DNA from: a virus
Lineage: Duplodnaviria > Caudoviricetes
IMG/VR virus record: IMGVR_UViG_3300042507_002438
Span: 1 to 63,187 of that record
Length of the DNA stretch: 63,187 nucleotides
Direction: 5' to 3' (one strand)
Made by a program: the position numbers and the translations under genes. Positions 36,472 through 60,118 of the stretch are shown one piece after another (the first letter of the stretch is position 1; each line of letters opens with the position of its first letter). Under the pieces are notes generated by a model. That model saw nothing but the letters and a program-made list of their open reading frames with translations. It was not told where the DNA came from and searched no databases.

Positions 36472-36597
36472 TATATTACGCCAAAACAAACAAATTTTAT
36501 GAGTTTTGGCTGGGTTATAAATAAAATAGGCTGTTACGTTGTAGTCATTAATCTGCTTTCACACCCAACTTAATGTCAGTATCAGATCACCTATTAG

Positions 36598-36760
36598 AAG
36601 TCAGAGGAGGACTTGAACCCCCACACCATTTGTGGTTTTCTCTAATCTACCCTTGCAAAGGTACCACCAGCGTTTGGCCACTCCTACTAAAGGTCCGCTT
36701 ACCTCCCTTCAGTAATAACAGACTTGCGGTCTATTGTGTGCACTCCTGTGCTATCTGACT
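36598..36760 (-). ncRNA. 163-nt tRNA-shaped RNA with an expanded domain in place of the anticodon arm
   Basis: Acceptor AGTCAGA/TCTGACT, D-like arm GCAC-AGGA-GTGC, T arm GGGGG-TTCAAGT-CCTCC, several internal hairpins; intergenic. Confidence 0.7.
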
Positions 36761-42804: not shown

Positions 42805-45173
42805 TTTGTTTTAATTATAATGTACTTCCCTCTTGCGTCTCTATTCCATTCCGGGTCTATTCCGGTTCTGAACACCGAGTACGCTGTCATCCATTGGTAG
42901 AAACGGTTCTGGCTTATGCTACGCTTTCCTCCCTTTGCAAAGTCAGGGAACTCAGATATGAACGTATTCCACAGGTCATTGCCGTACACCCTAACGTCTA
43001 ACTTGAATATGTTGTCGTTGTTCGGGTCAAGCACCCACTCGTAGAAGTTCATGTCAGTCTCGGCAATAAACTTACGGATGTGTAGGTTTCTATACTCGCT
43101 CTTGATGAATCCTTCACGCAGATACAACTGCAAGTTAGATATCATGTAGTTATCAAACCTCAACCACTCTGCCTCTGTCCAGTCGCTGAACAGCAACTTG
43201 CCAAACTCTTGCTCAGGCGTGTAGTCCTTTGAGTAGTACGAAGCAAACTCAATCTCCCACTTTCTTCTCTCAAACGAATTACCCTTTCCCTTGATGGCGT
43301 AGTTGGTCGTGATGATGATCTTTGGTGACTTGTCGAACCCGATCTTGATGGCGTCCTTATTCTTTTTCTCAAGCGTTATACCCTCTGTAACGATACTGAA
43401 CAACCTCTCAAAGTCAAAGTGCTTTCTAACGTCGTCAAATGTCAGAACCTGCGTGTCTGTGGACACCAACTGATACGGGAACGAACGCTCAAAGCTGAAC
43501 GACTTACCGTCCAAAACAACTAAGTTCTTCATCTTGCCAATGGCACTGACGAATATACCCTTACCGGTACCACCCTCCGGGTTCTCCGTGATGACCTCGT
43601 CATTGATGATAACTGCCGGGCAGTAGCCCAAGTTCTTGTAGCCGTGCAGCATGTAGCCAATGGTACTCTCTATACTCTTGGATCTAGCCTCGTCACCACC
43701 GGACACGTTGAACACGAACTGCTTGTAGTCGCAGTCTACGTCATTCAGTGGCCTGAACTCTCGCTGTATCACCTGTCTCTTCCACACATATCCACCAAGG
43801 TCCATGTAGTCAATCGTCTCAACAGCGTCTAGAGTCACACGCACCGCGCAGTTTTTGTAGTACAGATACGACGAGTCCTTGGTGTCACTAACGAAGTATA
43901 CGTCGACTGGGTCAAGCATATTCAGAAACTCCTCCTTGAAGTACTTAGTCTTCTCAGCAAAGAAGTTGTATATGTTTACCTCCGCGTTCTCCTTGACGTA
44001 TCTAAGCACGAAGTCTTTAATCTCTTCGTCTGAAGTGTCGTCGATAAGGTTGTTCGTAACCTTAACAAAAATATAAGACTTAGTGCCTTCCGGTGAATAC
44101 TTATAAAATCCATGGTCTTCTAAAAACTCTTTAAACTCTAGGTGTAGTAATGATACCGCTCCCCTCTCTGATATTGTCCAGAACCTAGGAATAGACAAGT
44201 CCTTCTCCACTTCCGCAAGTACCGCGTCTATGGTCTCGTCGTCGACTCCGGACTCCCTTAAGTCGAGACGCAAGTCCTTTTTTGGCACCCCGTTCTGGAA
44301 ACGTGCGCGCACCTCGTCATACTTTTCTACGTCCTCAAAGAACCTAGTGTTATGCTCATCTGCATGAGAGTACGCACTAGTCACGATCTGCATGATCTCC
44401 TTGTGGTCGAACCCGTCGTGTTGGTAGTACAGGCACTCCTCAATGGCGCGCCCTTTGTCTATGCCAAAACGGTTCATGGTTGCAGCGAGAACAAATACGT
44501 TATTGTTTCTCTCTCCCTCAACGATGCCATACTCTCTGTCCCACCACAACTTGAGCCTGCGAATAATCTCGTCAGTTCTTGTGAGCCTAATCTTTGGCAT
44601 TAGAACGTCGTCCGTGCTGTACTGCCGAACCTCTTGGGTCATGCTCGTCCATGTGTCGGCGTTCTCGTTGATATATATGATCGGGTCATACGACTCGTAG
44701 CACACGCGAGACAAGTTCTTGCCTGTCACGTCGAAGTGGTCGCTGTTAAAGTGATCCTGCAACGCCTTAAAGTAGTGCTTGTGGTTCATCGAGTCTTTTG
44801 GTATTCTCACCAAGACCTTCAGACCGTCACCGGACGGCGATACAAAGCAGGCATACACGTATGGGCTTGATATAATTTCGCTTCTGGCCTCCATCAACGA
44901 CTTGTTTGAGTCGTAGTTGTCGAAGTCTAGACAGATCATCCCGCTATGGTCAAGCAGTGAGTTGTCGTTACGCTTCGTGAACGTGCCAGAAAAACAGATA
45001 GCCGGAAGCTTTGACTTCAGCTTGTTTCTTTCTTCTTTATTCTTTTCTTTTCGGATGGCATTGACAACTTCTCTGCTCTTGCCCTCCTTGATTCGTGCAA
45101 GTATAACGTTGACGTCTCTGTAAAATGGAGCAGACGTGTCCTTTATACTCTGAAATATGGTTATTTGTGACAT
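42801..45173 (-). CDS. Primase-helicase (VirE-N/BT4734-like AEP + PriCT + P-loop)
   Basis: K.KLP...FSG.F..R, CLDFD, F.SPSG.GLK, R.CY.S.D; GERNN; GGTGKG; FDD; TTN. Confidence 0.88.
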   Translation of the reverse strand: MSQITIFQSIKDTSAPFYRDVNVILARIKEGKSREVVNAIRKEKNKEERNKLKSKLPAICFSGTFTKRNDNSLLDHSGMICLDFDNYDSNKSLMEARSEIISSPYVYACFVSPSGDGLKVLVRIPKDSMNHKHYFKALQDHFNSDHFDVTGKNLSRVCYESYDPIIYINENADTWTSMTQEVRQYSTDDVLMPKIRLTRTDEIIRRLKLWWDREYGIVEGERNNNVFVLAATMNRFGIDKGRAIEECLYYQHDGFDHKEIMQIVTSAYSHADEHNTRFFEDVEKYDEVRARFQNGVPKKDLRLDLRESGVDDETIDAVLAEVEKDLSIPRFWTISERGAVSLLHLEFKEFLEDHGFYKYSPEGTKSYIFVKVTNNLIDDTSDEEIKDFVLRYVKENAEVNIYNFFAEKTKYFKEEFLNMLDPVDVYFVSDTKDSSYLYYKNCAVRVTLDAVETIDYMDLGGYVWKRQVIQREFRPLNDVDCDYKQFVFNVSGGDEARSKSIESTIGYMLHGYKNLGYCPAVIINDEVITENPEGGTGKGIFVSAIGKMKNLVVLDGKSFSFERSFPYQLVSTDTQVLTFDDVRKHFDFERLFSIVTEGITLEKKNKDAIKIGFDKSPKIIITTNYAIKGKGNSFERRKWEIEFASYYSKDYTPEQEFGKLLFSDWTEAEWLRFDNYMISNLQLYLREGFIKSEYRNLHIRKFIAETDMNFYEWVLDPNNDNIFKLDVRVYGNDLWNTFISEFPDFAKGGKRSISQNRFYQWMTAYSVFRTGIDPEWNRDARGKYIIIKTK

Positions 45174-46419: not shown

Positions 46420-46982
46420 TTTTGATCAGTGATAAATGTTTCAACGTCCTTGGATAGTATATACTTTTTAGATATACTGTCAGCAATTGCCTGTGTCGTC
46501 ATGCCCTCCGATAACTTAGTGATGATCCACTTCTCTACCTCTGGCCAGTTCTTACTCTTCTTACTTAGCGGAACCTTTACCACCTCTACGGGTGCCACTG
46601 CCTTAGCGCCTGACTGCCCGTCGTCGTCGTCCATGTTAAGACTTAGAATGGACATCATGCTGTAACGTCTCGCATAAGAAATGAGAGAGCCTGTTACCTG
46701 TGGGTTGCTTGGGTCCTTTGAGATTAGTGGGTACTCACTCTGCATGAACTCTCCGCTCTCTGCATGGTACAAAGTAGTTACTAGGAAACCGTCATCCGGG
46801 TGTGCTGTCATTATCAAGCCACACGAATTTAACACGGGCGTTACCGCGTCCAAAATGTTCGATAGACTTGCGTAACTGCTCTTGAAGTGCGGATTCTTCG
46901 CGTCCTTCTTGATCTTGTTTACCTCGCTCTGAAATGTGTGTAGAGCCTTCGTTAGGTTGGTGATTTTTTCTGATGTTTTCAT
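46416..46982 (-). CDS. erf: ERF family ssDNA annealing protein
   Basis: K.AKNPHFKS.YA.L...H.ESGE...PQ..GS.ISYARRY...DDDG. Confidence 0.9.
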   Translation of the reverse strand: MKTSEKITNLTKALHTFQSEVNKIKKDAKNPHFKSSYASLSNILDAVTPVLNSCGLIMTAHPDDGFLVTTLYHAESGEFMQSEYPLISKDPSNPQVTGSLISYARRYSMMSILSLNMDDDDGQSGAKAVAPVEVVKVPLSKKSKNWPEVEKWIITKLSEGMTTQAIADSISKKYILSKDVETFITDQK

Positions 46983-48970: not shown

Positions 48971-49194
48971 TTGTTAAACTTGTTTCTGTAGTACTCTTTC
49001 TGTTCTTTTTGTACGTTTGTAAACACCGAGTTGAACGTGTTCGGGTCTATCTTTGGAAAGTCAGGCTCTCTGTATGGCTCGGCCTCACTTATGGGCTCTC
49101 GGCCCGCGTTCTTGGTCACGTAGTACAGCATGGCGGCATACACTATGTACCCCGCCCCTGCCATTAGTATGAAAAAACCTATCGTGTTACTCAT
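48967..49194 (-). CDS. Small membrane protein
   Basis: MSNTIGFFILMAGAGYIVYAAMLYY TM; GGAGG upstream. Confidence 0.65.
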   Translation of the reverse strand: MSNTIGFFILMAGAGYIVYAAMLYYVTKNAGREPISEAEPYREPDFPKIDPNTFNSVFTNVQKEQKEYYRNKFNK

Positions 49195-49426
49195 CTTTAC
49201 CTCCTTGTATTTTATCACGCATCCATTTTGCTCCTTTTCTAAATCCATTCATAACTCCTAAATCAAAATCACCACTGCATTCTTTTGGCTCTGCTTGGTA
49301 AATCTCCTCGTCACTTGGTATTTCGATGTGTGTTATTTCATTCATAAGATGTTCAATATGCAGTGGCGTGAATTTGTCTGTCTTAATTAGCATTGTTTTT
49401 ACTTGTTCTTCTGTGTATAGTTTCAT
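49187..49426 (-). CDS. Hypothetical protein ending QGGKDE
   Basis: LYTEEQV...PSDEEI...GF..GAKWMR. Confidence 0.7.
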   Translation of the reverse strand: MKLYTEEQVKTMLIKTDKFTPLHIEHLMNEITHIEIPSDEEIYQAEPKECSGDFDLGVMNGFRKGAKWMRDKIQGGKDE

Positions 49427-49692
49427 TGCTCACCTCCTCCGTAGGTTTCGTTGTATGCTTTTGCTTCGTCTAAATAAGTTATAATATGCTGAGTATCGTG
49501 GTGATTTATTTCTCCCATCTCCCCCGCTTTGAGAACATCTTCCTTGGTGTAACCCCTATTTTTATTCTGCATTTCTTTGGCTTGTTGAAATTTTATGGCT
49601 ATTACTCTTTTTTCTGATTGTGGCTTCCATTCTATATGTTCCCAAATTTCATTTTGCAACCACTCTACTGCCGTCTGTTGTTTATTGTTCAT
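49423..49692 (-). CDS. TAVxWL family protein ending ETYGGGEQ
   Basis: KQQTAVEWL...QAKEM. Confidence 0.7.
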   Translation of the reverse strand: MNNKQQTAVEWLQNEIWEHIEWKPQSEKRVIAIKFQQAKEMQNKNRGYTKEDVLKAGEMGEINHHDTQHIITYLDEAKAYNETYGGGEQ

Positions 49693-49997
49693 TTGTTACC
49701 TCCGTATGTTTCGTTAAATTTTACAATCAATTCCTTAACTCTAAAATATAATGTTTCATTCACAAAATGTTTTTGATACATTTTGAATTTATGGTTGTAC
49801 TTATATTCATTGCTGTTCAACCAATTAACAAAATCAATGCTAAATTCATTTTGTTGATTTTTCTCTATCCCTTTAACGACGGAGATTACGTGTTCTAACA
49901 AATACTGGTTTTGTTGGTAGATTGAACGCATTTGAGTTGGAAATTTCTGATTCAATTGCTCAATTAACTGCTCTACTGTGCTTTGTTGTTTACTCAT
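49689..49997 (-). CDS. TAVxWL-like family protein ending ETYGGNK
   Basis: KQQSTVEQL...; ATGA overlap. Confidence 0.7.
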   Translation of the reverse strand: MSKQQSTVEQLIEQLNQKFPTQMRSIYQQNQYLLEHVISVVKGIEKNQQNEFSIDFVNWLNSNEYKYNHKFKMYQKHFVNETLYFRVKELIVKFNETYGGNK

Positions 49998-50157
49998 CTT
50001 CTAGCATTTTATAGATTAATACATAGCCGCCCGATATCAACGTAATTGTCATCAGTGCGACCCAAAAGTCCGTCATGACTAGCGAAAGGGTCACTAGCCC
50101 CACTATCATCAGCATTGTAGATAGTAGCAGTCCTACTGCGTATAGATGTCTTTTCAT
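49990..50157 (-). CDS. 55-aa two-TM membrane protein
   Basis: MKRHLYAVGLLLSTMLMIVGLVTLSLV...; ATGA overlap with the upstream gene; below ORF-track cutoff. Confidence 0.65.
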   Translation of the reverse strand: MKRHLYAVGLLLSTMLMIVGLVTLSLVMTDFWVALMTITLISGGYVLIYKMLEDE

Positions 50158-50447
50158 TCTTCTGTATACTTATGGTGTGAAATAATGTCCAAGTCGTCGG
50201 GAGCCTCCACGACACTCATCGTGTTCTCTTGTCTGTCGTAACAGATTAGTCTGTTGTACGGGGCGAGCAGGTGTGCCTTCCTCATAAAGAATAGTTGTCC
50301 CCACTCCCTGAGGTTTGCGCCATCAGGGATGGACTCGATATCGATCAGGTCTAGGCCGGCCTTGTCTGTGTACACGTCGCCCGTGTTTGCGTTGTAGCAG
50401 AGCACCTCATACTCGTGTGCCCTGCTCATAAATAAGAATAAGTTCAT
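50154..50447 (-). CDS. Hypothetical protein
   Basis: ATG 50447 in an ATGA overlap. Confidence 0.65.
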   Translation of the reverse strand: MNLFLFMSRAHEYEVLCYNANTGDVYTDKAGLDLIDIESIPDGANLREWGQLFFMRKAHLLAPYNRLICYDRQENTMSVVEAPDDLDIISHHKYTEE

Positions 50448-50617
50448 TTCCAAATAATTAAGTGTTTGCCACCGCGTGGCCCGTAGTGTGTGTGCTCGTA
50501 ACGTTTCTTCTCTGTGTTGTACGCAAGTTCGCCCTGAACCCAGTACATTTGACCCTTAAAGTCGTACTCGTAGTACTGAGCCTTGTGGTCTTGTGTTGTG
50601 CCTTTAGTTATTCTCAT
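50444..50617 (-). CDS. 57-aa hypothetical protein
   Basis: MRITKGTT...YGPRGGKHLIIWK*; fills the gap. Confidence 0.6.
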   Translation of the reverse strand: MRITKGTTQDHKAQYYEYDFKGQMYWVQGELAYNTEKKRYEHTHYGPRGGKHLIIWK

Positions 50618-50864
50618 AAAATTGTATTGAATTTTGTAGTGTACCCTTTGTGCCCGCCTCTACCATGGAGCGGGATGGAATTGTCTGTCCGTATGCGCCG
50701 CGTCGTGCCTTTCTTGGAAGGAAGCACGCACCTATCTCTAGTAAGTGCATTGCCTCTCGTCCAAGTGAGCCCTCCATGTGCCACACGGCACCCGTCTCGA
50801 TAATGTTTTGCATCTTGTCGTATCCATACACGACTTGCAGTTTTCTAATCTCTGTAATCTTCAT
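50604..50864 (-). CDS. Hypothetical early protein
   Basis: Q..I..G..W..EGS.GR.AM..LE.G.C.L. Confidence 0.75.
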   Translation of the reverse strand: MKITEIRKLQVVYGYDKMQNIIETGAVWHMEGSLGREAMHLLEIGACFLPRKARRGAYGQTIPSRSMVEAGTKGTLQNSIQFYENN

Positions 50865-51102
50865 GGTCTTCGCTCATTATATTGTTAATTATTTCCCTCA
50901 CGTCGTTCTCGTCGTAGCACTCCATGAACCATGAATGCTTGAGGTACTCGTTCTCTTCGCACAAGAAATGTATCAGCATGTGCCGTCTCATCTCTCGCTC
51001 GCTGTCCCACTCGTAGCCCGAAAAGTCGTCCGAGTGCCACACTTCTTCTGTTGGGTAGTAGACCGCCTCGGCCTCAAACCCCTCTTCAAATATTATTTTC
51101 AT
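50845..51102 (-). CDS. Acidic early protein
   Basis: 85 aa, E/D-rich. Confidence 0.65.
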   Translation of the reverse strand: MKIIFEEGFEAEAVYYPTEEVWHSDDFSGYEWDSEREMRRHMLIHFLCEENEYLKHSWFMECYDENDVREIINNIMSEDHEDYRD

Positions 51103-51200
51103 TTTTTGTCGTTGTCAATTAGTGTAATAATCCCTACAAATAATAGATAGATAACGCCCATCGTCGCTATGCATATCAGTTGCCATACATGATGATTCAT
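51099..51200 (-). CDS. 33-aa single-TM peptide
   Basis: MNHHVWQLICIATMGVIYLLFVGIITLIDNDKK*; ATGA overlap. Confidence 0.45.
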   Translation of the reverse strand: MNHHVWQLICIATMGVIYLLFVGIITLIDNDKK

Positions 51201-51203
51201 TGT

Positions 51204-51620
51204 TTAGTCCTCCCACTCTGTATAGTAACTATCCCCGTCGTCGTCATACTCTTCCTCCCACGTGGTATTGTACACGTTCTTGCACACGGCATCCCTACAC
51301 TCGTCGCAGCAAGCATGCGCCTCACCGCCTCTGAATACGTAACCCTCTGTGAAATTCCAATCGCCGCAGTTGTCACAATATCTGTAGTCGTCGTTGTGTC
51401 TGTTGCATGCATAGATAAATGTAGCCTTTTCAAAGTCGGTCAACTTCTCTCCATCAATCCAATCTGATGGTTTACAATTTGGGTCCTCAAGATACTCGGC
51501 TACTAAACTCTTCATGTAAATTGAATTTGCAACCTCTTCTCTTAATTCGTTAATTGCCCATAGTTCATTCATGATGACTACGCTCTTGACGATTTCATTT
51601 GATTTTAATAGTTGTTTCAT
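51204..51620 (-). CDS. Early protein with zinc finger and acidic tail
   Basis: CDNC...EGY...CCDEC...YYTEWE; ACACTATATC leader. Confidence 0.75.
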   Translation of the reverse strand: MKQLLKSNEIVKSVVIMNELWAINELREEVANSIYMKSLVAEYLEDPNCKPSDWIDGEKLTDFEKATFIYACNRHNDDYRYCDNCGDWNFTEGYVFRGGEAHACCDECRDAVCKNVYNTTWEEEYDDDGDSYYTEWED

Positions 51621-51641
51621 GATATAGTGTATTAATTAGTT

Positions 51642-51863
51642 TTATTGGTTAAATCCCCATTGCTCTACGAAATGGTTGTTGCATTCGCTACACCTTACAA
51701 TGCGCTGTATTGCGTTTCCTACTTGCTGCCTCTCTTCGGTTGGGGTGTACTCTGTTTCGTCCCCACAATGTCTACATATCTTTTTGTATGAGATAATTAT
51801 TTTCTTGCTTGAGGTGTTGTCATATGCCGACTCCCAAGTTACTTGATGCGCTACTTGTTTCAT
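51642..51863 (-). CDS. Zinc-ribbon protein
   Basis: CRHC...CSEC. Confidence 0.65.
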   Translation of the reverse strand: MKQVAHQVTWESAYDNTSSKKIIISYKKICRHCGDETEYTPTEERQQVGNAIQRIVRCSECNNHFVEQWGFNQ

Positions 51864-52075
51864 GCTTGTTCGATTAATTTGATGATTTCTTCAGTTGACT
51901 CCAACACCTCAAACCCACCATTGTTATGGGTAGCTACGCCAACTCTTGTGTACTTTGGCTTTATCCTATTGTCGGCATTTTCGGGAACCTCATACATATG
52001 ACCAATGTGCATGGGGTTCACGTACAATTCTTCTTTTTTGTTAAGGTAGAATGTTGTTAGTTTAATTAGTTTCAT
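51860..52075 (-). CDS. FlbD-like small protein
   Basis: IKLT....E.YVN...I......V.ES.EEI...I; ATG 52075 follows the ACACTATATT leader. Confidence 0.65.
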   Translation of the reverse strand: MKLIKLTTFYLNKKEELYVNPMHIGHMYEVPENADNRIKPKYTRVGVATHNNGGFEVLESTEEIIKLIEQA

Positions 52076-52095
52076 AATATAGTGTATTAATTTGT

Positions 52096-52141
52096 TTGAA
52101 CCGCGGAGGGGAATCGAACCCCTCTCGTTCCTTTCGCGGTT
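52096..52141 (-). ncRNA. Mini-tRNA-like element 3 (degenerate)
   Basis: AACCGCG-AAAGGAACGA-GAGGGG-TTCGATT-CCCCTC-CGCGGTT-CAA; intergenic. Confidence 0.7.
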
Positions 52142-52145
52142 AGTA

Positions 52146-52418
52146 TTATAGATGTCCTCCAAATACTTTATTGTTGTCTTCAATTAAGTCAAATCTAGTT
52201 TCAGACTCGCAGTCTATCCAATCCATTCCGTCTTGCAGTCCAAAGCCAAAATCAAATTCTGATTTACTTATGTTGTCGTCCAATTGTTCAACAAACAATT
52301 CGTGGTTATCCAAAAGCCACTCGTGTATCTTGTCTTGGCTGATGTGAGATGGAACTTCGATAGTTACTGACGCTACCTTATGGTAAACTTCTCTTGTTGT
52401 GATTGTTACTTGTTTCAT
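52146..52418 (-). CDS. Early hypothetical protein
   Basis: 90 aa; ACACTATATC leader. Confidence 0.75.
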   Translation of the reverse strand: MKQVTITTREVYHKVASVTIEVPSHISQDKIHEWLLDNHELFVEQLDDNISKSEFDFGFGLQDGMDWIDCESETRFDLIEDNNKVFGGHL

Positions 52419-52429
52419 GATATAGTGTA

Positions 52430-52714
52430 TTATTTTAAGCCTAGGTTGATGTTGATTTGATTGAACATTACAGAACTTTCAAGGTCTTCTAGAAATCCTA
52501 CCTCAATGCCGTAAGTGTCAGTATCTTTTATATTGTCGCTATATTGGACTAAAGACTCTGATTCGTCATCGTGAAGTCTGAAGACCTCCTTGTTCATGTT
52601 CATTAGGTCTAGAACCTCGGTGTGTTTAACCTCTTGGAAGATAAACCCGTCCAAGTTGTAATAAGTTTCACATGGCGCTAAGCCCAATTTTTTTACGTTT
52701 GTTAATTTTTTCAT
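52430..52714 (-). CDS. Early hypothetical protein
   Basis: ATG 52714 after the conserved leader; F.L.DD.SES.....GIEVG. Confidence 0.75.
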   Translation of the reverse strand: MKKLTNVKKLGLAPCETYYNLDGFIFQEVKHTEVLDLMNMNKEVFRLHDDESESLVQYSDNIKDTDTYGIEVGFLEDLESSVMFNQININLGLK

Positions 52715-52735
52715 GATATAGTGTATTAAATTGTT

Positions 52736-52783
52736 TGGTTCCCGTGACCCGACTCGAACGGGTAGCATGCCATTGGCACGGGA
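52736..52783 (-). ncRNA. Mini-tRNA-like element 2
   Basis: TCCCGTG-13 nt-ACCCG-TTCGAGT-CGGGT-CACGGGA-ACCA; perfect 7+5 bp. Confidence 0.85.
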
Positions 52784-52788
52784 TGAGA

Positions 52789-53136
52789 CTAGTCTAGGTA
52801 TATAGACTTGTCGTTGTTGACGTCGTAGATTGCCTTCTGATGATTGGCGTGCCCGTAAGCAATGGCGACCTCTCTGTCTTGGATGTTCATGCTCAAGTCT
52901 AGGTATAACTTGTTGTCGTCTACCCAAGCGCCAAAGTACGTGTACTCTGACCTTAGTTGTGCTTGTGGTCTGTACCTATCGCACGTCTTGTTTATCTCTT
53001 CGTCCGATATGTCATCAAAGTTGTCGATGATGAACTCTAGCCCCTCTAGGCTGACCATGTAGCCCGACGTTGGCGCGCTGTTGTCCTTGTCCAAGGAAAA
53101 CCCGCCGTTACTTTTGAGTAAGTTTGCGTAATTCAT
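52789..53136 (-). CDS. Early phage protein
   Basis: GGF...P..GYMVS...G.W.D....YLD.S...A...G....Q.AIYD. Confidence 0.75.
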   Translation of the reverse strand: MNYANLLKSNGGFSLDKDNSAPTSGYMVSLEGLEFIIDNFDDISDEEINKTCDRYRPQAQLRSEYTYFGAWVDDNKLYLDLSMNIQDREVAIAYGHANHQKAIYDVNNDKSIYLD

Positions 53137-53278
53137 TTTCAATTTCTCTTTTAAGTTCTAGTTGTCGTTCAATTGCTCGCGTTAATTTGTTGGCGTACTC
53201 GTGGCGCCCCTCTTGGTGCACTAGGTAGGCTAACTTGCCTACCCGTTGTGCGATTTCGATTAGTTCTTCTATTAGCAT
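53108..53278 (-). CDS. 56-aa helical protein
   Basis: MLIEELIEIAQRVG...; fills the gap. Confidence 0.55.
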   Translation of the reverse strand: MLIEELIEIAQRVGKLAYLVHQEGRHEYANKLTRAIERQLELKREIENELRKLTQK

Positions 53279-53517
53279 AAATCTTTGTTTGATACTTTAA
53301 GTGTGTTGTTGTGCTGTTCTGAAATCATGTCGATTGCGACTCTGTATACACGTCCGTTCGGCATTTGATAGGTCACGTACTCTTGGAGTGCGCCCGTCGT
53401 GGAGCGGTGTGTAACCACCCCACTGCGCCATGCTTGATTTCGGTAGACCTTACACTCTCTAGCCCACCCGCGAAACTCGTCGCGTGCTTCGGGCAGTTCA
53501 TTTAATAGGTTAGTCAT
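53272..53517 (-). CDS. Early hypothetical protein
   Basis: MTNLLNEL...; start uncertain (53556 possible). Confidence 0.65.
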   Translation of the reverse strand: MTNLLNELPEARDEFRGWARECKVYRNQAWRSGVVTHRSTTGALQEYVTYQMPNGRVYRVAIDMISEQHNNTLKVSNKDLC

Positions 53518-53521
53518 GTCG

Positions 53522-53710
53522 TTAGTTGATTTTGTTTGATTGAATATGTAATTCATGCAGCATGTCTGATACGTTACATATCATCTGTTCTGTGTGCATT
53601 AAGTTTTGTTGGTCAGCAAAGCATTCGCCTTTTTCCATGTTGTACATTTTGCGAAGTGTCTTAAGAAACTTCTCGCATGCAGCAATTTTTTCTTCTTGAA
53701 TTGTTCTCAT
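53522..53710 (-). CDS. Early hypothetical protein
   Basis: 62 aa; conserved leader. Confidence 0.7.
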   Translation of the reverse strand: MRTIQEEKIAACEKFLKTLRKMYNMEKGECFADQQNLMHTEQMICNVSDMLHELHIQSNKIN

Positions 53711-53727
53711 GATATAGTGTGTTATGG

Positions 53728-54006
53728 TTAATATGTGTACAATGTGTTGTTGAAATTAATCGGGAGTTTTTTTGCTTTGATATATCCGTTACGCATGGTT
53801 TTGTATGTATTAATTGGCATCCAAAAACCAAAGCAAGACAAGAATGAGGATACGTAGATAAATGCCGCCTTATCCGTCATTACAATAGCGCGGCATCCGT
53901 GAGTTACCTCTTCATTTTGTGAGATTTTAAAAATTGGCTCGTCGGATGACTCATATTTTAACTTGAAGTCATCGGACATTTGCGGTGTAATTTTGATTGT
54001 CTTCAT
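53728..54006 (-). CDS. Early hypothetical protein
   Basis: ATG 54006 after the conserved leader, 21 nt from the hammerhead cut. Confidence 0.7.
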   Translation of the reverse strand: MKTIKITPQMSDDFKLKYESSDEPIFKISQNEEVTHGCRAIVMTDKAAFIYVSSFLSCFGFWMPINTYKTMRNGYIKAKKLPINFNNTLYTY

Positions 54007-54021
54007 GATATAGTGTGTTAT

Positions 54022-54071
54022 GGTTAAGACGCCCGTAGGCGTTTCGTCCAATTAGGACTCTTCAGTTAACC
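54022..54071 (-). ncRNA. Type I hammerhead ribozyme 1
   Basis: GGUUAA-CUGAAGA-GUCC-UAAUU-GGAC-GAAA-CGCC-UACG-GGCG-UC/UUAACC; complete core, three perfect stems. Confidence 0.93.
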
Positions 54072-54272
54072 TTTGTGGTCGTGAAAAACAACTTGGTGCG
54101 ACCTAATTAGTTCGGGTATACAATACGCGTCCCAATCACCGCTCTCTATTTTGTTGTCAGCATAATCAATTGCCTCCTCAATTGGTACGTTTACATACGG
54201 GCAGTTCGCATAGATTTCGTTTGGAATTTCACTAACGAATACGTCGTTGAAGTAGATTGTTACTAGTTGCAT
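54066..54272 (-). CDS. 68-aa acidic early protein bracketed by two hammerheads
   Basis: Conserved leader; stop codon lies in hammerhead stem I. Confidence 0.75.
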   Translation of the reverse strand: MQLVTIYFNDVFVSEIPNEIYANCPYVNVPIEEAIDYADNKIESGDWDAYCIPELIRSHQVVFHDHKG

Positions 54273-54287
54273 GATATAGTGTTTTAT

Positions 54288-54339
54288 GGTTAATATGCCC
54301 CGCAGGGCATTTCGTCTATTGAAGACTCGTCAGTTAACC
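54288..54339 (-). ncRNA. Type I hammerhead ribozyme 2
   Basis: GGUUAA-CUGACGA-GUCU-UCAAU-AGAC-GAAA-UGCCC-UGCG-GGGCA-UA/UUAACC; stems covary with copy 1. Confidence 0.93.
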
Positions 54340-54501
54340 TCTTACTCCTCCATTGTAGCACCTTTTCACTTTGTAGTGAGAAGACCCAATTTGCTTTTCC
54401 ATTTTTTTCGCTTGAACACAAGCATCTTTTAGGTTTGAAGCAATTATGTAAATGCTTGAAGGCTTGCCGTTTGAGTAGATTACATTGTAGGTGTTGTTCA
54501 T
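54334..54501 (-). CDS. 55-aa first early protein
   Basis: MNNTYNVIYSNG...NGGVRG*; conserved leader; stop in hammerhead stem I. Confidence 0.7.
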   Translation of the reverse strand: MNNTYNVIYSNGKPSSIYIIASNLKDACVQAKKMEKQIGSSHYKVKRCYNGGVRG

Positions 54502-54520
54502 GATATAGTGTGTAATTAGT

Positions 54521-54568
54521 TGGTTACCTAGAGCGGACTCGAACCGCTTGCACGCCTAGTGCTAGGTA
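54521..54568 (-). ncRNA. Mini-tRNA-like element 1
   Basis: TACCTAG-13 nt-AGCGG-TTCGAGT-CCGCT-CTAGGTA-ACCA; perfect 7+5 bp. Confidence 0.85.
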
Positions 54569-54855
54569 ATGTTACATGGTAGCCGTACCAAATAGGACTC
54601 ATTTGTATGCCTCGCAGCGGGACTATATACGCTGCTGTTAGTCGTTTCGCCGAATCTTCATGACGATTTACTCAAAGGTCACTATCGGGGCGCCGTATCG
54701 CGTTACACACTATGTCAGAGCATGTCACCTAATCGGGTTAGGCTAGCGTACGGGTTATTTCAAAGAACTTATACTATCGGCGGGGAGCCAAAGGCTGCAA
54801 CCCTAGAAGTAATAGTATGTAAGTAAAAGAACGATGTTGAACTAAATCAACGATA

Positions 54856-54887
54856 CAAAGGTATATCGGGGGTTTTGACTATGCAAG
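54856..54887 (-). promoter_or_regulatory. Main early promoter (Bacteroidota -33/-7)
   Basis: CTTG-20 nt-TACCTTTG, canonical spacing, heads the whole - strand arm. Confidence 0.8.
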
Positions 54888-54951
54888 TTATATGCAAAAT
54901 ATTTTTGATTTTCTGACATTTGCGTGACAAAGTTTTTTGAGTTTGATTGAT

Positions 54952-54964
54952 TATCAATGAGTTA
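54952..54964 (+). promoter_or_regulatory. IHF-type binding site
   Basis: TATCAATGAGTTA matches WATCAANNNNTTR. Confidence 0.5.
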
Positions 54965-55010
54965 CAAATCCATGTTAAAAAATGATGAAGAGAAGGTGGG
55001 GTAAACTCTC

Positions 55011-55067
55011 TGTTTCACGCACAAATGTTCCACGGAACTAATGCTGTTTCACGGCCAATGTTCCACG
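55011..55067 (+). repeat. Four direct TGTTYCACG repeats
   Basis: At 55011, 55026, 55045 and 55059. Confidence 0.75.
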
Positions 55068-55401
55068 GCCATTCCGTGACATTACTATGACACAGTTGTA
55101 AACAGGGAGCGAAGGTAGGGCAGCAAGCAAGCATACACGAACGAACGACGTACACGAACGACGAACGGCAGCGGACACGGTCAGCATGTATATTATGTAG
55201 GTAGGTATGTCATCCAAGGCCTACAGAAAATGCCAAAAATCTACAAGAAAAAGGCCGAAACCGAGACCCCCCTATCGCGAAAAAATCGGTTTCCGGGATC
55301 GGCGGCTGGACGTCAAATGGGTATATTACCCAAAATATCCACATTTCCAACGACTTTTTTCAGGCAATACAACTACCGGTTTCGGGGATATTCTGTGAAT
55401 A

Positions 55402-55571
55402 GTGTTGATTTCTAACATTTTGATGTTGATTTTGTGTTGATGTAACCCGCGTCAATACTGGGAATGTTGAAAATGTTAACTTTTTCTCTTAAAAATGAAA
55501 AATTAAAAATAATATTCTCACATATATTATCCTATATATATAAAGGGGCCGGTCACTTTAACATTCAACAT
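55402..55571. other. Origin-like element (copy B)
   Basis: TGTTGAT iterons, TGTTGAAAATGTTAAC, CTCAC...CTATATATATAAAG.GGCC, TTAACATTCAACAT in the same order as at 45177-45357. Confidence 0.6.
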
Positions 55572-55600
55572 TACTTTTTTGAGTTGTATCTTTGCCTGAA

Positions 55601-56227
55601 ATGAATCTAAAACAGGTCAATTTTAACGGCTACTACAAGGAAGAGTCGTCAAAGAAGCAGGTCTACCTGCACCATACTGCCGGAAGTGCGGACGGAGAGC
55701 GTCAGTTTCAGTTTTGGGACGCGGACGCGGTGAAGGTTGCGACGTGTGTTTGCGTGAGTAGGAGTGGAGAGGTGGTGCAGGGGTTTGGGAGTAAGTACTG
55801 GGCTCATCACTTGGGCCTGAGCAGCAAGCACTTTAAGGCTCGCGGCATTGGGTACCGCAACCTGGACCGCTCGTCAATCGGGATCGAGATCTGTAACTGG
55901 GGCTGGCTCAAAAAGGACGGGGACAACTTCTTCACGTATACGGGCACGAAGATTCACAAGGACCTGGTAGTCGAGCTGGAGACGCCATACCGCGGCCAAA
56001 AGTACTGGGAGGCGTACACGCCGGAGCAGATCGAGGCGACAAGAGAGCTACTGGTGCTGTGGCGTGACAAGTACGGCATACCAATGACATACAACGGGGA
56101 CATATGGGACGTGACGATGCGAGCGCTAAAGGGTGACCCAGGCCTTTACACACACAATAGTGTGAGGTCAGACAAGACGGACGTGTACCCTCATCCACAG
56201 CTAGTAAACATGCTAAAGGGGCTATGA
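55601..56227 (+). CDS. N-acetylmuramoyl-L-alanine amidase (Amidase_2 endolysin)
   Basis: LHHTAG, WAHH, SIGIEI, YT.EQ, TH....DK.D..P; ATG 6 nt after TATCTTTG (55587). Confidence 0.9.
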   Translation: MNLKQVNFNGYYKEESSKKQVYLHHTAGSADGERQFQFWDADAVKVATCVCVSRSGEVVQGFGSKYWAHHLGLSSKHFKARGIGYRNLDRSSIGIEICNWGWLKKDGDNFFTYTGTKIHKDLVVELETPYRGQKYWEAYTPEQIEATRELLVLWRDKYGIPMTYNGDIWDVTMRALKGDPGLYTHNSVRSDKTDVYPHPQLVNMLKGL

Positions 56228-57604: not shown

Positions 57605-57622
57605 TGCCTATATTTGCCGTGC

Positions 57623-58303
57623 ATGCACGAGCAAGAAGACGTATTTAGGGCCAAAAAGAAGCCCAAGAACCCAATTAAATTCAAGTTACAGCTCAACGAG
57701 GAGCAAAAGCAAGCAAAATCGGTCATACTACACAGTCCGATAACGGTCATAACGGGGGCAGCAGGGAGTGGAAAGACGCTCCTTGCTACCGCAACCGGCC
57801 TTGACCTGTTATTTACAAAGGAAGTGGAGAAGTTGGTGATAACCAGGCCTGCGGTTCTTGCCGGAGAGGACCTCGGATTCCTTCCTGGAGACATACAGGA
57901 GAAGATGGACCCGTGGCTACAGCCAATATACCAGAACTTTTACGCACTTTATGGCAAGGAGGCCATAGAAAAAGAGCTAGCGGAGGGCAGAATACAGATC
58001 CTTCCGATGGGATACGTGCGTGGAATCACGTTTGTGGACTCATTTGTCATAGCGGACGAGGTGCAGAACCTGACGGACAACCAGATGCAGGCACTTTTGG
58101 GTCGGTTGGGACGTGGATCCAAGATGGTGCTGTGCGGAGACGTGAGCCAGATTGACTTGAAGAACAAAAAACAGTCAGGCCTGCCATTCTTAAAGAAGGT
58201 GAGCATGTCAGTAGACGAGGTGAAGATGGTGTGCTTGCAGACAAACCACAGGCACGACGTTGTGGAGAAGATATTAGCAGTATACAAAACATACGAGGAC
58301 TAA
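57623..58303 (+). CDS. phoH: PhoH-like ATPase
   Basis: GAAGSGKT, ITRP, GFLPG..EK..P, RG.TF, DE.QN, R.G..SK..L.GD..Q.D. Confidence 0.93.
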   Translation: MHEQEDVFRAKKKPKNPIKFKLQLNEEQKQAKSVILHSPITVITGAAGSGKTLLATATGLDLLFTKEVEKLVITRPAVLAGEDLGFLPGDIQEKMDPWLQPIYQNFYALYGKEAIEKELAEGRIQILPMGYVRGITFVDSFVIADEVQNLTDNQMQALLGRLGRGSKMVLCGDVSQIDLKNKKQSGLPFLKKVSMSVDEVKMVCLQTNHRHDVVEKILAVYKTYED

Positions 58304-58335: not shown

Positions 58336-59877
58336 ATGATCGTAAAAAACATTGAATTCGACAAGGATCGACTGTTAGTTGGTATCTCAAAGATTGCCGC
58401 AGCAGTTGGAAGTACGATGGGACCGATGGGTCGCACGGTGTTGTTAGAGTCAGAGAACCACGTCGGTGGCGTTACAGTCACAAAGGACGGGGTAACAGTT
58501 GCTAGAGGGATCACTCTAGAAGACCCGGTAGAGAATTTAGCGGTTACATTGATGAAGCAGGCAGCAGAGAAGACTGCGGTAAGTGCCGGAGACGGTACGA
58601 CCACGTCAATTGTGCTGACGCATGCCATCATCGACACGTTTATTGCCAGCGGAAGAGAGGCCGTGGCAAGTGAGATGCGTGCAATTAAGAAAAGTTCAGA
58701 GGAGATCATCGAGAGACTAAAGGAGATGGCTGTTCCAGTGACTGACGAGACGTTACTACACGTTGCGACGATCAGCGCTAACGGAGACGAAGAGATTGGT
58801 CAGTTAGTGGCTGACGTATTCATGCGAGTTGGCGGCTCTGGGGTTGTTACGGTGGAGAGAAGCAATACCAGCAAGACGTACTTTGAGATCTCTGAGGGAA
58901 TGCGCATCAACAGAGGATGGACCAGTCCATACTTTATTACGGACCACAAAAAGAGAGAGGCTGTATTGGACAATCCATACGTGCTAGTGACGGACAGAGA
59001 GATACAGAGCATCCAAAGCATCGAGCACATATTGGCGCCGCTGGTGAGAGACGGCAAGAGCATACTAATCATCGGAGAGATGAACACGCACGCGTTGAAC
59101 GCTCTGAACATGAACGTTGCTAAGGGCACGATCAAGGCGGCTGCCGTGGTTCCTCCGCAGTTTGGATACAAAAGAAAAGAATTAATGGCTGACATCGCTA
59201 ACGCTGTTGGTGCAAAGTATATCAGCGACGAGGTTGGGGACGACTTTGGCCTGGTTAATATTTCTGACCTGGGGCGCGTGAGCAAGGCGGTGATCGGAAA
59301 GGACTCAACGGTGATGGTGATGCAAGACAACTCTTTGGCAAAGAATAGAGCGGACGAGTTGTTGTCGATGGAGGCTCCGGTGGACGAGGAGGAGAAGAAG
59401 TTCTTGGCAGAGAGAATCGCGACGCTAAACGGTAGTGTTGGGGTTGTGTATGTTGGGGCGCAGACGGACATCGAGCAGAAAGAGAAGTACGACAGGGTGG
59501 ACGACGCGGTGAGCGCTACAAAGGCTGCAATCGAGGAGGGAATCCTTCCTGGCGGTGGTTACGCACTGTTAAAGATCAGTGAGACCATGCCAGAAGACGA
59601 CGTGATGACTAATGCGGTGACAATTCCGTTCTACACCATATTGGAGAACGCTGGATTCGACGAGGACATGATCCAGACGGTGTGTGACGAGTTTGACGCC
59701 AATGGTCGGGCATTCAACCCTGTGACTCAGGAGTTTGGAGACATGATGGAGATGGGAATCGTTGACCCACTTAAAGTTACAAGAAGTGCAATCGAGAACG
59801 CGGTGAGCGTTGCTACGACTATCTTGAGCACACAGGCAATCATTTATAACATGAGAGAGCATGAGAGCGGTAAATAA
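58336..59877 (+). CDS. groEL: Chaperonin GroEL
   Basis: TMGP.GR, TKDGVTVA, AGDGTTT, TISANGD, EEGILPGGG, GIVDP.KVTR.A. Confidence 0.96.
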   Translation: MIVKNIEFDKDRLLVGISKIAAAVGSTMGPMGRTVLLESENHVGGVTVTKDGVTVARGITLEDPVENLAVTLMKQAAEKTAVSAGDGTTTSIVLTHAIIDTFIASGREAVASEMRAIKKSSEEIIERLKEMAVPVTDETLLHVATISANGDEEIGQLVADVFMRVGGSGVVTVERSNTSKTYFEISEGMRINRGWTSPYFITDHKKREAVLDNPYVLVTDREIQSIQSIEHILAPLVRDGKSILIIGEMNTHALNALNMNVAKGTIKAAAVVPPQFGYKRKELMADIANAVGAKYISDEVGDDFGLVNISDLGRVSKAVIGKDSTVMVMQDNSLAKNRADELLSMEAPVDEEEKKFLAERIATLNGSVGVVYVGAQTDIEQKEKYDRVDDAVSATKAAIEEGILPGGGYALLKISETMPEDDVMTNAVTIPFYTILENAGFDEDMIQTVCDEFDANGRAFNPVTQEFGDMMEMGIVDPLKVTRSAIENAVSVATTILSTQAIIYNMREHESGK

Positions 59878-60118
59878 TTTTGTGATCATTGACGAGCTGG
59901 TGGAGGAGAAAAAGACCTCCACCGGCCTAATACTGACGGCTGACGAGAGCGAGGAGATGCGCTACGGCAAGGGAACGGTTGTAGAGGCTGGAGACAAGGT
60001 TGTGGTTGTCAAGAAGGGAGACGTCATATACTTTGACAAGAGACAGGGTCACCAGGTGAGACTGGAGGGCACGCTGTACGGTATCATTAGAGAGCAAGAC
60101 GTAGTAGTAATATTATGA
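59861..60118 (+). CDS. groES: Co-chaperonin GroES
   Basis: EKKT.TGL.L mobile loop, G.VV..G, K.GD.I.F, E.DV..IL. Confidence 0.9.
   Translation: MRAVNNFVIIDELVEEKKTSTGLILTADESEEMRYGKGTVVEAGDKVVVVKKGDVIYFDKRQGHQVRLEGTLYGIIREQDVVVIL

Follow-up and report, generated by a model that had tools for sequence, protein, structure and literature searches.

An inverted copy of a shared start-codon motif in the early 5' leader of a Bacteroidota-type podophage

Genome and layout of the early operon

The window, i.e. the whole stretch of DNA that was analysed, is a complete IMG/VR virus record of 63,187 bp. The phage is a Bacteroidota-type podophage. By similarity, its replication and chaperonin genes come closest to those of phages of Flavobacterium, Cellulophaga, Polaribacter and Bacteroides, and its nearest named relative is MW202828.1, with a primase-helicase that is 53% identical. 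A crassvirus muzzle domain was found by Pfam in a protein of 1864 amino acids. A second large protein, of 3524 amino acids, was considered as an N4-like virion RNA polymerase and rejected, since the DxDxD polymerase motif was not found in it and Pfam yields DUF domains only.

The early genes discussed here are read on the minus strand, from 54501 downwards. Between 54863 and 52197 this strand matches TAnnTTTG, which we take to be the Bacteroidota -7 promoter consensus, only at 54863-54856; the early genes must therefore be read from this box or from further upstream. We infer that early transcription starts near 54850. A sister contig, L209, bears TTACTTTG at the position aligned to the box. 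This contig was the sole one recovered by four IMG/VR scans anchored on the leader, and it is the only relative that contains the leader.

Two hammerhead-like ribozymes and three mini-tRNAs interrupt the early operon, and after each of them comes a standard leader of about 20 nt. The promoter box, the first gene and the processing elements are located as follows.

54856..54863, minus strand: putative -7 promoter box TACCTTTG, a match to TAnnTTTG (pattern search)
54521..54568, minus strand: mini-tRNA 1, with a 7-bp acceptor stem, 13-nt linker, T arm, loop UUCGAGU and ACCA (sequence and pairing rules)
54499..54520, minus strand: standard leader and AUG of the first gene, including the target arm at 54501-54515 (sequence, motif search)
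54334..54501, minus strand: first early gene, 55 aa, with no Pfam family (ORF list, Pfam scan)
54288..54339, minus strand: hammerhead-like ribozyme 1, predicted cut at 54294/54293 (core CUGANGA...GAAA read by eye)
54022..54071, minus strand: hammerhead type I ribozyme 2, predicted cut at 54028/54027 (Rfam, and complete core by eye)
52736..52783, minus strand: mini-tRNA 2, before the leader of the gene starting at 52714 (sequence and pairing rules)
52095..52141, minus strand: mini-tRNA 3, with the 3' tail CAAA, before the leader of the gene starting at 52075 (sequence and pairing rules)

Ribozyme 2 matches the Rfam family Hammerhead_1 with 31.6 bits (E 7.2e-05), slightly under the gathering score of 34, and ribozyme 1 matches RAGATH-1-hammerhead over 54356-54289 with 23.1 bits, far under the gathering score of 56.3. 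Stem I of both ribozymes (GGUUAA/UUAACC) contains the TAA stop codon of the preceding gene, which for ribozyme 1 is the stop codon of the first early gene. The Rfam scan of 49000-55600, with E values up to 10, gave these two hammerhead matches, one plastid UTR match and nothing else.

The three mini-tRNAs share one plan, a 7-bp acceptor stem, a linker of 11-13 nt, a T arm and ACCA or CAAA, and all satisfy strict pairing rules for the 7-bp acceptor stem, the 5-bp T stem and the T loop. ARAGORN did not call them as tRNAs. We presume that such minihelices are RNase P substrates, which would be cleaved at their 5' ends; that of mini-tRNA 1 falls at 54568, the position given by the initial annotation of this DNA. 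Following the predicted cuts, each mRNA would start about 20 nt before its AUG (21 nt after the hammerheads). The sequence motif that abuts these AUGs was also considered as a T7-like promoter. This was rejected, since the genome yielded no phage RNA polymerase and the motif stands just after the cut sites of ribozymes and tRNAs. Elsewhere in the genome, ARAGORN reports an odd tRNA of 92 nt, anticodon undetermined, at 36597-36688 (minus strand). Over-long tRNA matches (92-141 nt) were reported by Rfam 5' of the primase gene in three relatives (L200, 9297-9404; L177, 9279-9370; L176, 4082-4222).

Tandem hammerheads are known from prophage polycistronic RNAs, in which several of them separate the small genes of a single transcript (Perreault et al. 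2011, PMC3088659), and in haloviruses HF1/HF2 an early gene has a hammerhead 13 nt ahead of its start codon (PMC3088659). Unlike the tandem hammerheads in that account, those of the present operon alternate with mini-tRNAs, are followed each time by the same leader of about 20 nt and score below the Rfam gathering thresholds, so that the likeness is one of setting and not of the element. Our literature search did not find the combined layout of hammerheads, mini-tRNAs and standard leaders described.

On the plus strand, TAnnTTTG boxes precede many genes, often by just 4-7 nt from the ATG. These boxes read TATATTTG or TATCTTTG (e.g. at 1868, 12443, 20465, 55587 and 60772), and their position suggests that such genes have leaderless or nearly leaderless mRNAs. 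The control region is adjoined by plus-strand genes for PhoH-like (57614-58303), GroEL-like (58336-59877) and GroES-like (Cpn10; 59861-60118) proteins.

The inverted start-motif copy and its predicted folding

The shared motif TAAYACACTATATCATG directly abuts the ATG of eight minus-strand genes. A 17-mer search of the 63-kb genome, allowing up to three mismatches, gave nine matches, against a chance expectation of 0.15 (nine were reached in 0 of 100 shuffles). Eight of the matches are on the minus strand, each abutting an ATG; the ninth, on the plus strand at 54703-54719, is the element studied here.

54501, 54272, 54006, 53710, 52714, 52418, 52075 and 51620, minus strand: A of the ATGs abutted by the motif (17-mer search)
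54703..54717, minus strand: element UGACAUAGUGUGUAA, complementary at 14 of 15 positions to the first start region

The early genes would be transcribed from the 54863 box or from further upstream, and the element falls in their 5' leader. It reads TGACATAGTGTGTAA on the minus strand (54717..54703), and the first start region reads TTACACACTATATCA followed by TG (54515..54499). Positions 54717-54703 and 54515-54501 are complementary at 14 of 15 positions, with 11 contiguous pairs and a C.A at 54714 as the sole mismatch; the inverted-repeat listing gives the same pair as 15 nt, 93% complementary and 187 nt apart. The 15-mer is confirmed as a real inverted copy of the translation start region of the first gene, as had been noticed in the initial annotation. 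Searching with the antisense 15-mer and up to two mismatches gave eight matches (expectation 0.17), namely seven start regions and the element with its one mismatch, and the element is the only inverted copy of the start motif in the whole genome. The Erf-like gene (ATG at 46982) has a ninth leader, which is degenerate; with this leader included, the count of eight further leaders in that annotation holds. Among the nine copies, the best-matching target of the element is the adjacent one, 187 nt downstream in the same transcript.

It is possible that the element has no function of its own, being a chance match or a by-product of recombination between repeated leaders, in a block that is conserved for unrelated reasons. 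By our estimate, roughly one 15-nt inverted repeat with at most one mismatch and within 250 nt is expected somewhere in such a genome. However, a match to the particular start motif is expected at most 0.17 times per genome, and this one lies within the leader (roughly 350 nt) of the very transcript whose adjacent start region is its best match of nine. We consider this explanation improbable. Two further sequence relationships were rejected. The element is unlikely to be the sense start site of the plus-strand ORF 54722-54826, because this ORF is not conserved as a protein: its residues aligned to L209 differ at eight positions and the L209 stop lies one codon earlier. Another inverted repeat, I4 (54465-54480 / 54666-54681, 81% complementary), was judged to be a chance match and is topologically crossing.

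The element is made up of two parts: the six bases at its 5' end belong as second unit to a TGACAT direct repeat, considered further below, and its 3' seven bases close a local hairpin. Four structures were predicted in the leader.

54771..54818, minus strand: 5' stem-loop domain with an 8-bp closing stem (fold common to the phage and L209)
54693..54753, minus strand: Y-shaped leader domain enclosing the element (folding prediction; identical in L209)
54705..54725, minus strand: local hairpin, with ACAUGCU at 54725-54719, loop CUGACAU at 54718-54712 and AGUGUGU at 54711-54705 (folding prediction)
54614..54635, minus strand: hairpin GCAGCG/CGCUGC with a 10-nt loop containing AUAUAGU (folding prediction)

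The fold of the leader as a whole is no better than that of shuffled sequences (z -0.44), and the 61-nt Y domain, at -17.3 kcal/mol (z -1.72), is equalled by 11 of 200 shuffles. The AUAUAGU in the loop at 54614-54635 is 7 nt antisense to the core of the start motif, a length within chance. The early leaders of this phage (54620-54629, minus strand) and of MW202828.1 (L123, about 43640-43651) both carry UAUAUAGU in a hairpin loop.

Two mutually exclusive states of the element were considered. In state A, AGUGUGU would pair with ACAUGCU in the hairpin arm of the Y domain and the start site would be open. In state B, AGUGUGU and its neighbours would pair with UUACACACUAUAUCA just before the first AUG, which would be masked in the unprocessed transcript. 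Both the MFE and the centroid structure of the primary transcript contain the helix between element and start site, the probabilities of its 14 pairs are 0.67-1.0 in transcripts of 361, 411 and 517 nt, and the ensemble prefers state B over the local hairpin by 6.6 kcal/mol. The accessibility of the start site (-15 to +3) in the primary transcript is 0.20 by thermodynamic prediction, as compared to a mean of 0.69 (minimum 0.37) when the element was shuffled 30 times; in five processed mRNAs it is 0.76-0.91.

The ribosomes of Bacteroidia do not rely on Shine-Dalgarno pairing, and initiation is tuned by mRNA structure at the start site. For this reason the state B helix should block initiation, and the start site would be released by cutting at the intervening mini-tRNA or by earlier co-transcriptional folding of state A. 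We tentatively regard a cis-acting mask of the start site, in competition with the local hairpin, as the most likely function of the element. The only inverted copy in 63 kb lies upstream of its best target in one transcript, and the helix is predicted to dominate and to lower accessibility from the level seen with a shuffled element; selection may have favoured the pairing. That the element is a dedicated antisense regulator is unproven.

Long-range mRNA helices that mask the ribosome-binding region until refolding or processing occur in phage and bacterial mRNAs. The present case is like these in that the transcript itself carries, 5' of the start region, a segment complementary to it, in that the helix is predicted to be dominant and to lower accessibility, and in that a local hairpin represents the open state. 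Unlike them, it has no Shine-Dalgarno element in the masked region, as follows from the Bacteroidota type of the host; the masked leader is common to nine genes, a mini-tRNA stands between the two arms, and the pairing is not kept in L209. Little is understood of how Bacteroidota and their phages control translation, since the ribosomes of this phylum disregard Shine-Dalgarno sequences and are governed mainly by the structure of the mRNA. If the masking is true, a leader able to hide the standard start region, placed next to a cut site of the RNase P type, would show in compact form how processing can gate translation in Bacteroidota.

The initial annotation went further and proposed that the leader of about 280 nt, once freed by the mini-tRNA cut, acts in trans, pairing with all nine leaders and progressively shutting off early translation. 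The core AUAGUGU is indeed complementary to ACACUAU in all eight motif leaders and in the Erf leader. Duplexes of the 25-nt element region reach -11.4 to -18.4 kcal/mol with the eight leaders and -12.0 kcal/mol with the Erf leader, against a mean of -8.1 kcal/mol (sd 2.7) for 136 other gene starts. The element is also unchanged in L209, and a lake-water metagenome run, X20, shows no change in it among the differences listed. However, the commonest value, shared by three of the eight leaders, is -13.6 kcal/mol, while the best control gene start gives -16.8 kcal/mol and unrelated genomic windows reach -23 to -28 kcal/mol. The leader would be produced one-to-one with an operon that bears eight or nine targets, and no analogue was found in relatives (five with motifs of their own, and MW202828). 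In the free leader, moreover, seven of the 15 element bases are in the hairpin stem, with an unpaired probability of 0.12 or less. Burial in a local stem, which the annotation had named as speaking against a regulatory element, thus applies in part, to these seven bases. A timer acting on all leaders comes out as a weak proposal, and we regard it as very unlikely.

The precedent for action in trans is the C4 antisense RNA of phage P1. In P1, c4, icd and ant lie in one operon, and ant is fully repressed only with C4 (PMC8198154). RNase P accepts the C4 precursor as a substrate (Hartmann 1995, cited in PMC11143913). The arrangement described for the immI operon (c4-icd-ant) of P1/P7 resembles ours in that the antisense segment precedes its target within one operon transcript, on the same strand, and in that RNase P is implicated, here by prediction. 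It differs in several respects. No Rfam match to any such family, C4 included, was found here at E values up to 10 (49000-55600), the tRNA-like part is a separate minihelix between the antisense segment and the target, and the element is largely buried. The present phage is of lytic type with a host from another phylum, and action of the element in trans is putative. P1/P7 C4 RNA is the closest known analogue of the trans model, and the element is not a member of the C4 family. A C4-like riboregulator in a new setting, co-transcribed with its targets, freed by a mini-tRNA cut and titrating the Shine-Dalgarno-free leader of nine early mRNAs that hammerheads and mini-tRNAs release from a single transcript, is in our view highly doubtful; if true, such a leader would be an RNA-only clock for early translation shut-off in a Bacteroidota phage.

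Conservation in a sister contig, relatives and lake-water variants

In L209 the element is unchanged and lies within an identical block of 75 nt. The first gene of L209 differs from that of the present phage, and its first start region, TTAAACACTATACCATG, carries two uncompensated changes that leave 12 of 15 positions complementary. The probability of the long-range helix is consequently predicted at 0.06-0.18 and that of the local hairpin at 0.76, with state A favoured in the ensemble by 0.9 kcal/mol. As far as these predictions go, the pairing between element and start site is not maintained in this relative, which is one sister only. Sequestration of the first AUG in cis, as put forward in the initial annotation, is therefore supported by predicted folding in the present genome and not in L209, where the predicted helix collapses. 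A lack of covariation in relatives had been named in that annotation as refuting its proposal, and L209 partly shows it, having the same element and a target with two uncompensated changes.

Other parts of the leader do covary. The 5' domain has the same fold in both phages, with stems AUACUAUU/GAUAGUAU here and UACUAAAC/GUUUAGUA in L209 and an identical interior, and in the T stem of mini-tRNA 1 three of the five pairs are altered on both sides in L209. These compensatory changes in the T stem and the 8-bp 5' stem indicate that the leader is a folded RNA.

Searches for further relatives gave little. Blastn of 51000-56000 against the phage collection gave no match, IMG/VR scans with the start motif gave single chance matches or none (118 loci, 80 listed; none; 4 loci), and a metagenome scan gave one bacterial contig, L208, which was taken as chance. 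Eighty related loci were found via the primase, only five of which have a repeated pre-ATG motif of their own. In these five (L151, L179, L181, L199 and L203, among 81 loci screened) no antisense copy of the motif was found in the available upstream sequence, and antisense matches with up to three mismatches lie only far downstream. MW202828 has no antisense copy longer than 7 nt. The absence of an antisense copy from distant relatives stands against a cis mask, as does the loss of the pairing in L209 (12 of 15, helix probability at most 0.18).

An Rfam scan of six relatives at gathering scores gave no hammerhead and only three tRNA matches. Where this phage has ribozymes and mini-tRNAs, the relatives carry a strand-specific hairpin before early genes, either GTGTCGTTAACGACAC (11 copies in MW202828) or GTGTCTTCAAAGACAC; such hairpins were seen in L123 (MW202828.1; 43745-49890), L158, L188 and L203. 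The sixth stem pair of the two hairpin types shows a compensatory difference.

Variants of the phage are present in lake-water metagenomes. Among the differences listed for run X20, there is a crowding in 54632-54681 and none fall in 54682-54768. Lake contigs (X4, X9, X12 and X20; 51500-54400, minus strand) join, skip or reorder early cassettes exactly at leaders and hammerheads. The joint 52412/52709 shares 23 letters, others lie at 51837/52470 and 54030/54310, and at the last of these 54030 is joined to 54310 with a different insert of 27 letters. Since the contigs join at leaders and hammerheads, the gene cassettes are shuffled at these repeats, which act as recombination joints. Shuffling at repeated leaders, together with the loss of pairing in L209, is what would be expected if the element were a chance match or a recombination by-product. 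The setting may outweigh the element: an early operon cut to single-gene mRNAs by ribozymes and mini-tRNAs, with identical leaders and with cassettes that are shuffled in lakes.

TGACAT direct repeats at the control region

The 5' part of the element belongs to one of three pairs of direct repeats.

54712..54727, minus strand: TGACAT-N4-TGACAT, units 10 nt apart (54727, 54717), the second being the 5' six bases of the element (pattern search)
54914..54929, plus strand: TGACAT-N5-TGACA, followed by a GATTATCAATGAGTTAC centre like that of the family control modules (pattern search)
55077..55092, plus strand: TGACAT-N6-TGACA, with the second unit continuing ...CAGTTGTAAA and resembling the element (pattern search, direct repeat D2)

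TGACA-N5-7-TGACA occurs three times in the genome, always within 54713-55092 (shuffle mean 0.72; three are reached in 3 of 100 shuffles). Within 150 nt upstream of the primase gene, YGACA pairs were found in 39 of 77 related loci, as compared to 7 of 1533 random windows, and in many loci they flank a conserved TGATAATCA-like centre. In MW202828 four TGACA units fall at about +80 to +134 of the early leader, and the L209 leader has a third unit. The spacing of the repeats is 10-11 bp throughout. The element probably carries a second, overlapping constraint from this repeat, since its 5' six bases are the second TGACAT unit. The C.A mismatch with the start region is retained in L209, and it is this C that makes the unit TGACAT.

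The element could accordingly be read as a site at the DNA level, at which a candidate phage protein (a regulator, or the primase-helicase as replication initiator) would bind TGACAT-N4-TGACAT with the units one helical turn apart. Together with the pairs at 54914 and 55077, such a site would bracket the 54863 promoter and might, when occupied, switch off early transcription through a roadblock or a DNA loop, or else mark an origin. Complementarity to the start motif would then be incidental, or the start motif would itself be a weak inverted copy of the site (TGATATAGT vs TGACATAGT). The confinement of the pairs to 54713-55092, their recurrence 5' of primase genes around a common centre, the units in the leaders of MW202828 and L209 and the uniform spacing are all consistent with this reading, which also accounts for the conserved C at 54714. 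However, it leaves unexplained six further matching bases, GTGTAA, and the run of 11 contiguous pairs. Upstream of the primase gene, the module of this phage is built from TCAACAC and not TGACAT units, and the units in the MW202828 leader are unlike its start motif. The units are always in the sense orientation of the local genes, so that a role at the RNA level or one linked to promoters would fit as well. In addition, Pfam found no DNA-binding domain at or above the family cut-off in 19 small early or neighbouring proteins; among them, sub-threshold zinc-ribbon matches occur only in the 51642-51863 protein. On balance we consider a DNA site somewhat less likely than the cis mask. The initial annotation had offered an orientation-independent DNA operator as its alternative, which gains independent support, though for the TGACAT direct repeat that overlaps the element and not for the start motif as such. 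If the pairing should prove incidental, the useful result would be the TGACAT repeat, as a candidate control or origin site of the whole family.

Direct repeats that serve as iterons or operators, such as the sites of the phage P4 alpha primase-helicase, are found at control regions and origins. The repeats described here are similar, being short asymmetric units about one helical turn apart that are clustered at a divergent control region and, family-wide, upstream of the primase-helicase gene. They differ in that any binding protein is putative, in that the present phage has two unit types (TGACAT and TCAACAC) and in that they may have a role at the RNA level.

The TCAACAC units are part of a control module that is present in two copies, at 45290-45175 and 55480-55395 (both minus strand), each including GTTAACATTTTCAACA, a TAGTAATCAATAAGTTAC-like centre and three to four TCAACAC units about 11 nt apart. 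The primase ATG marks the end of one copy, and the second is found some 530 nt upstream of the early promoter; the layout recurs in relatives, where the units are YGACAT. The divergent intergenic region 54990-55170 (plus strand) also contains TTTCACG and GTTCCACGG units, spaced by about 33 nt, together with tandem ACGAACGAC units; these repeats are partly conserved in L209.
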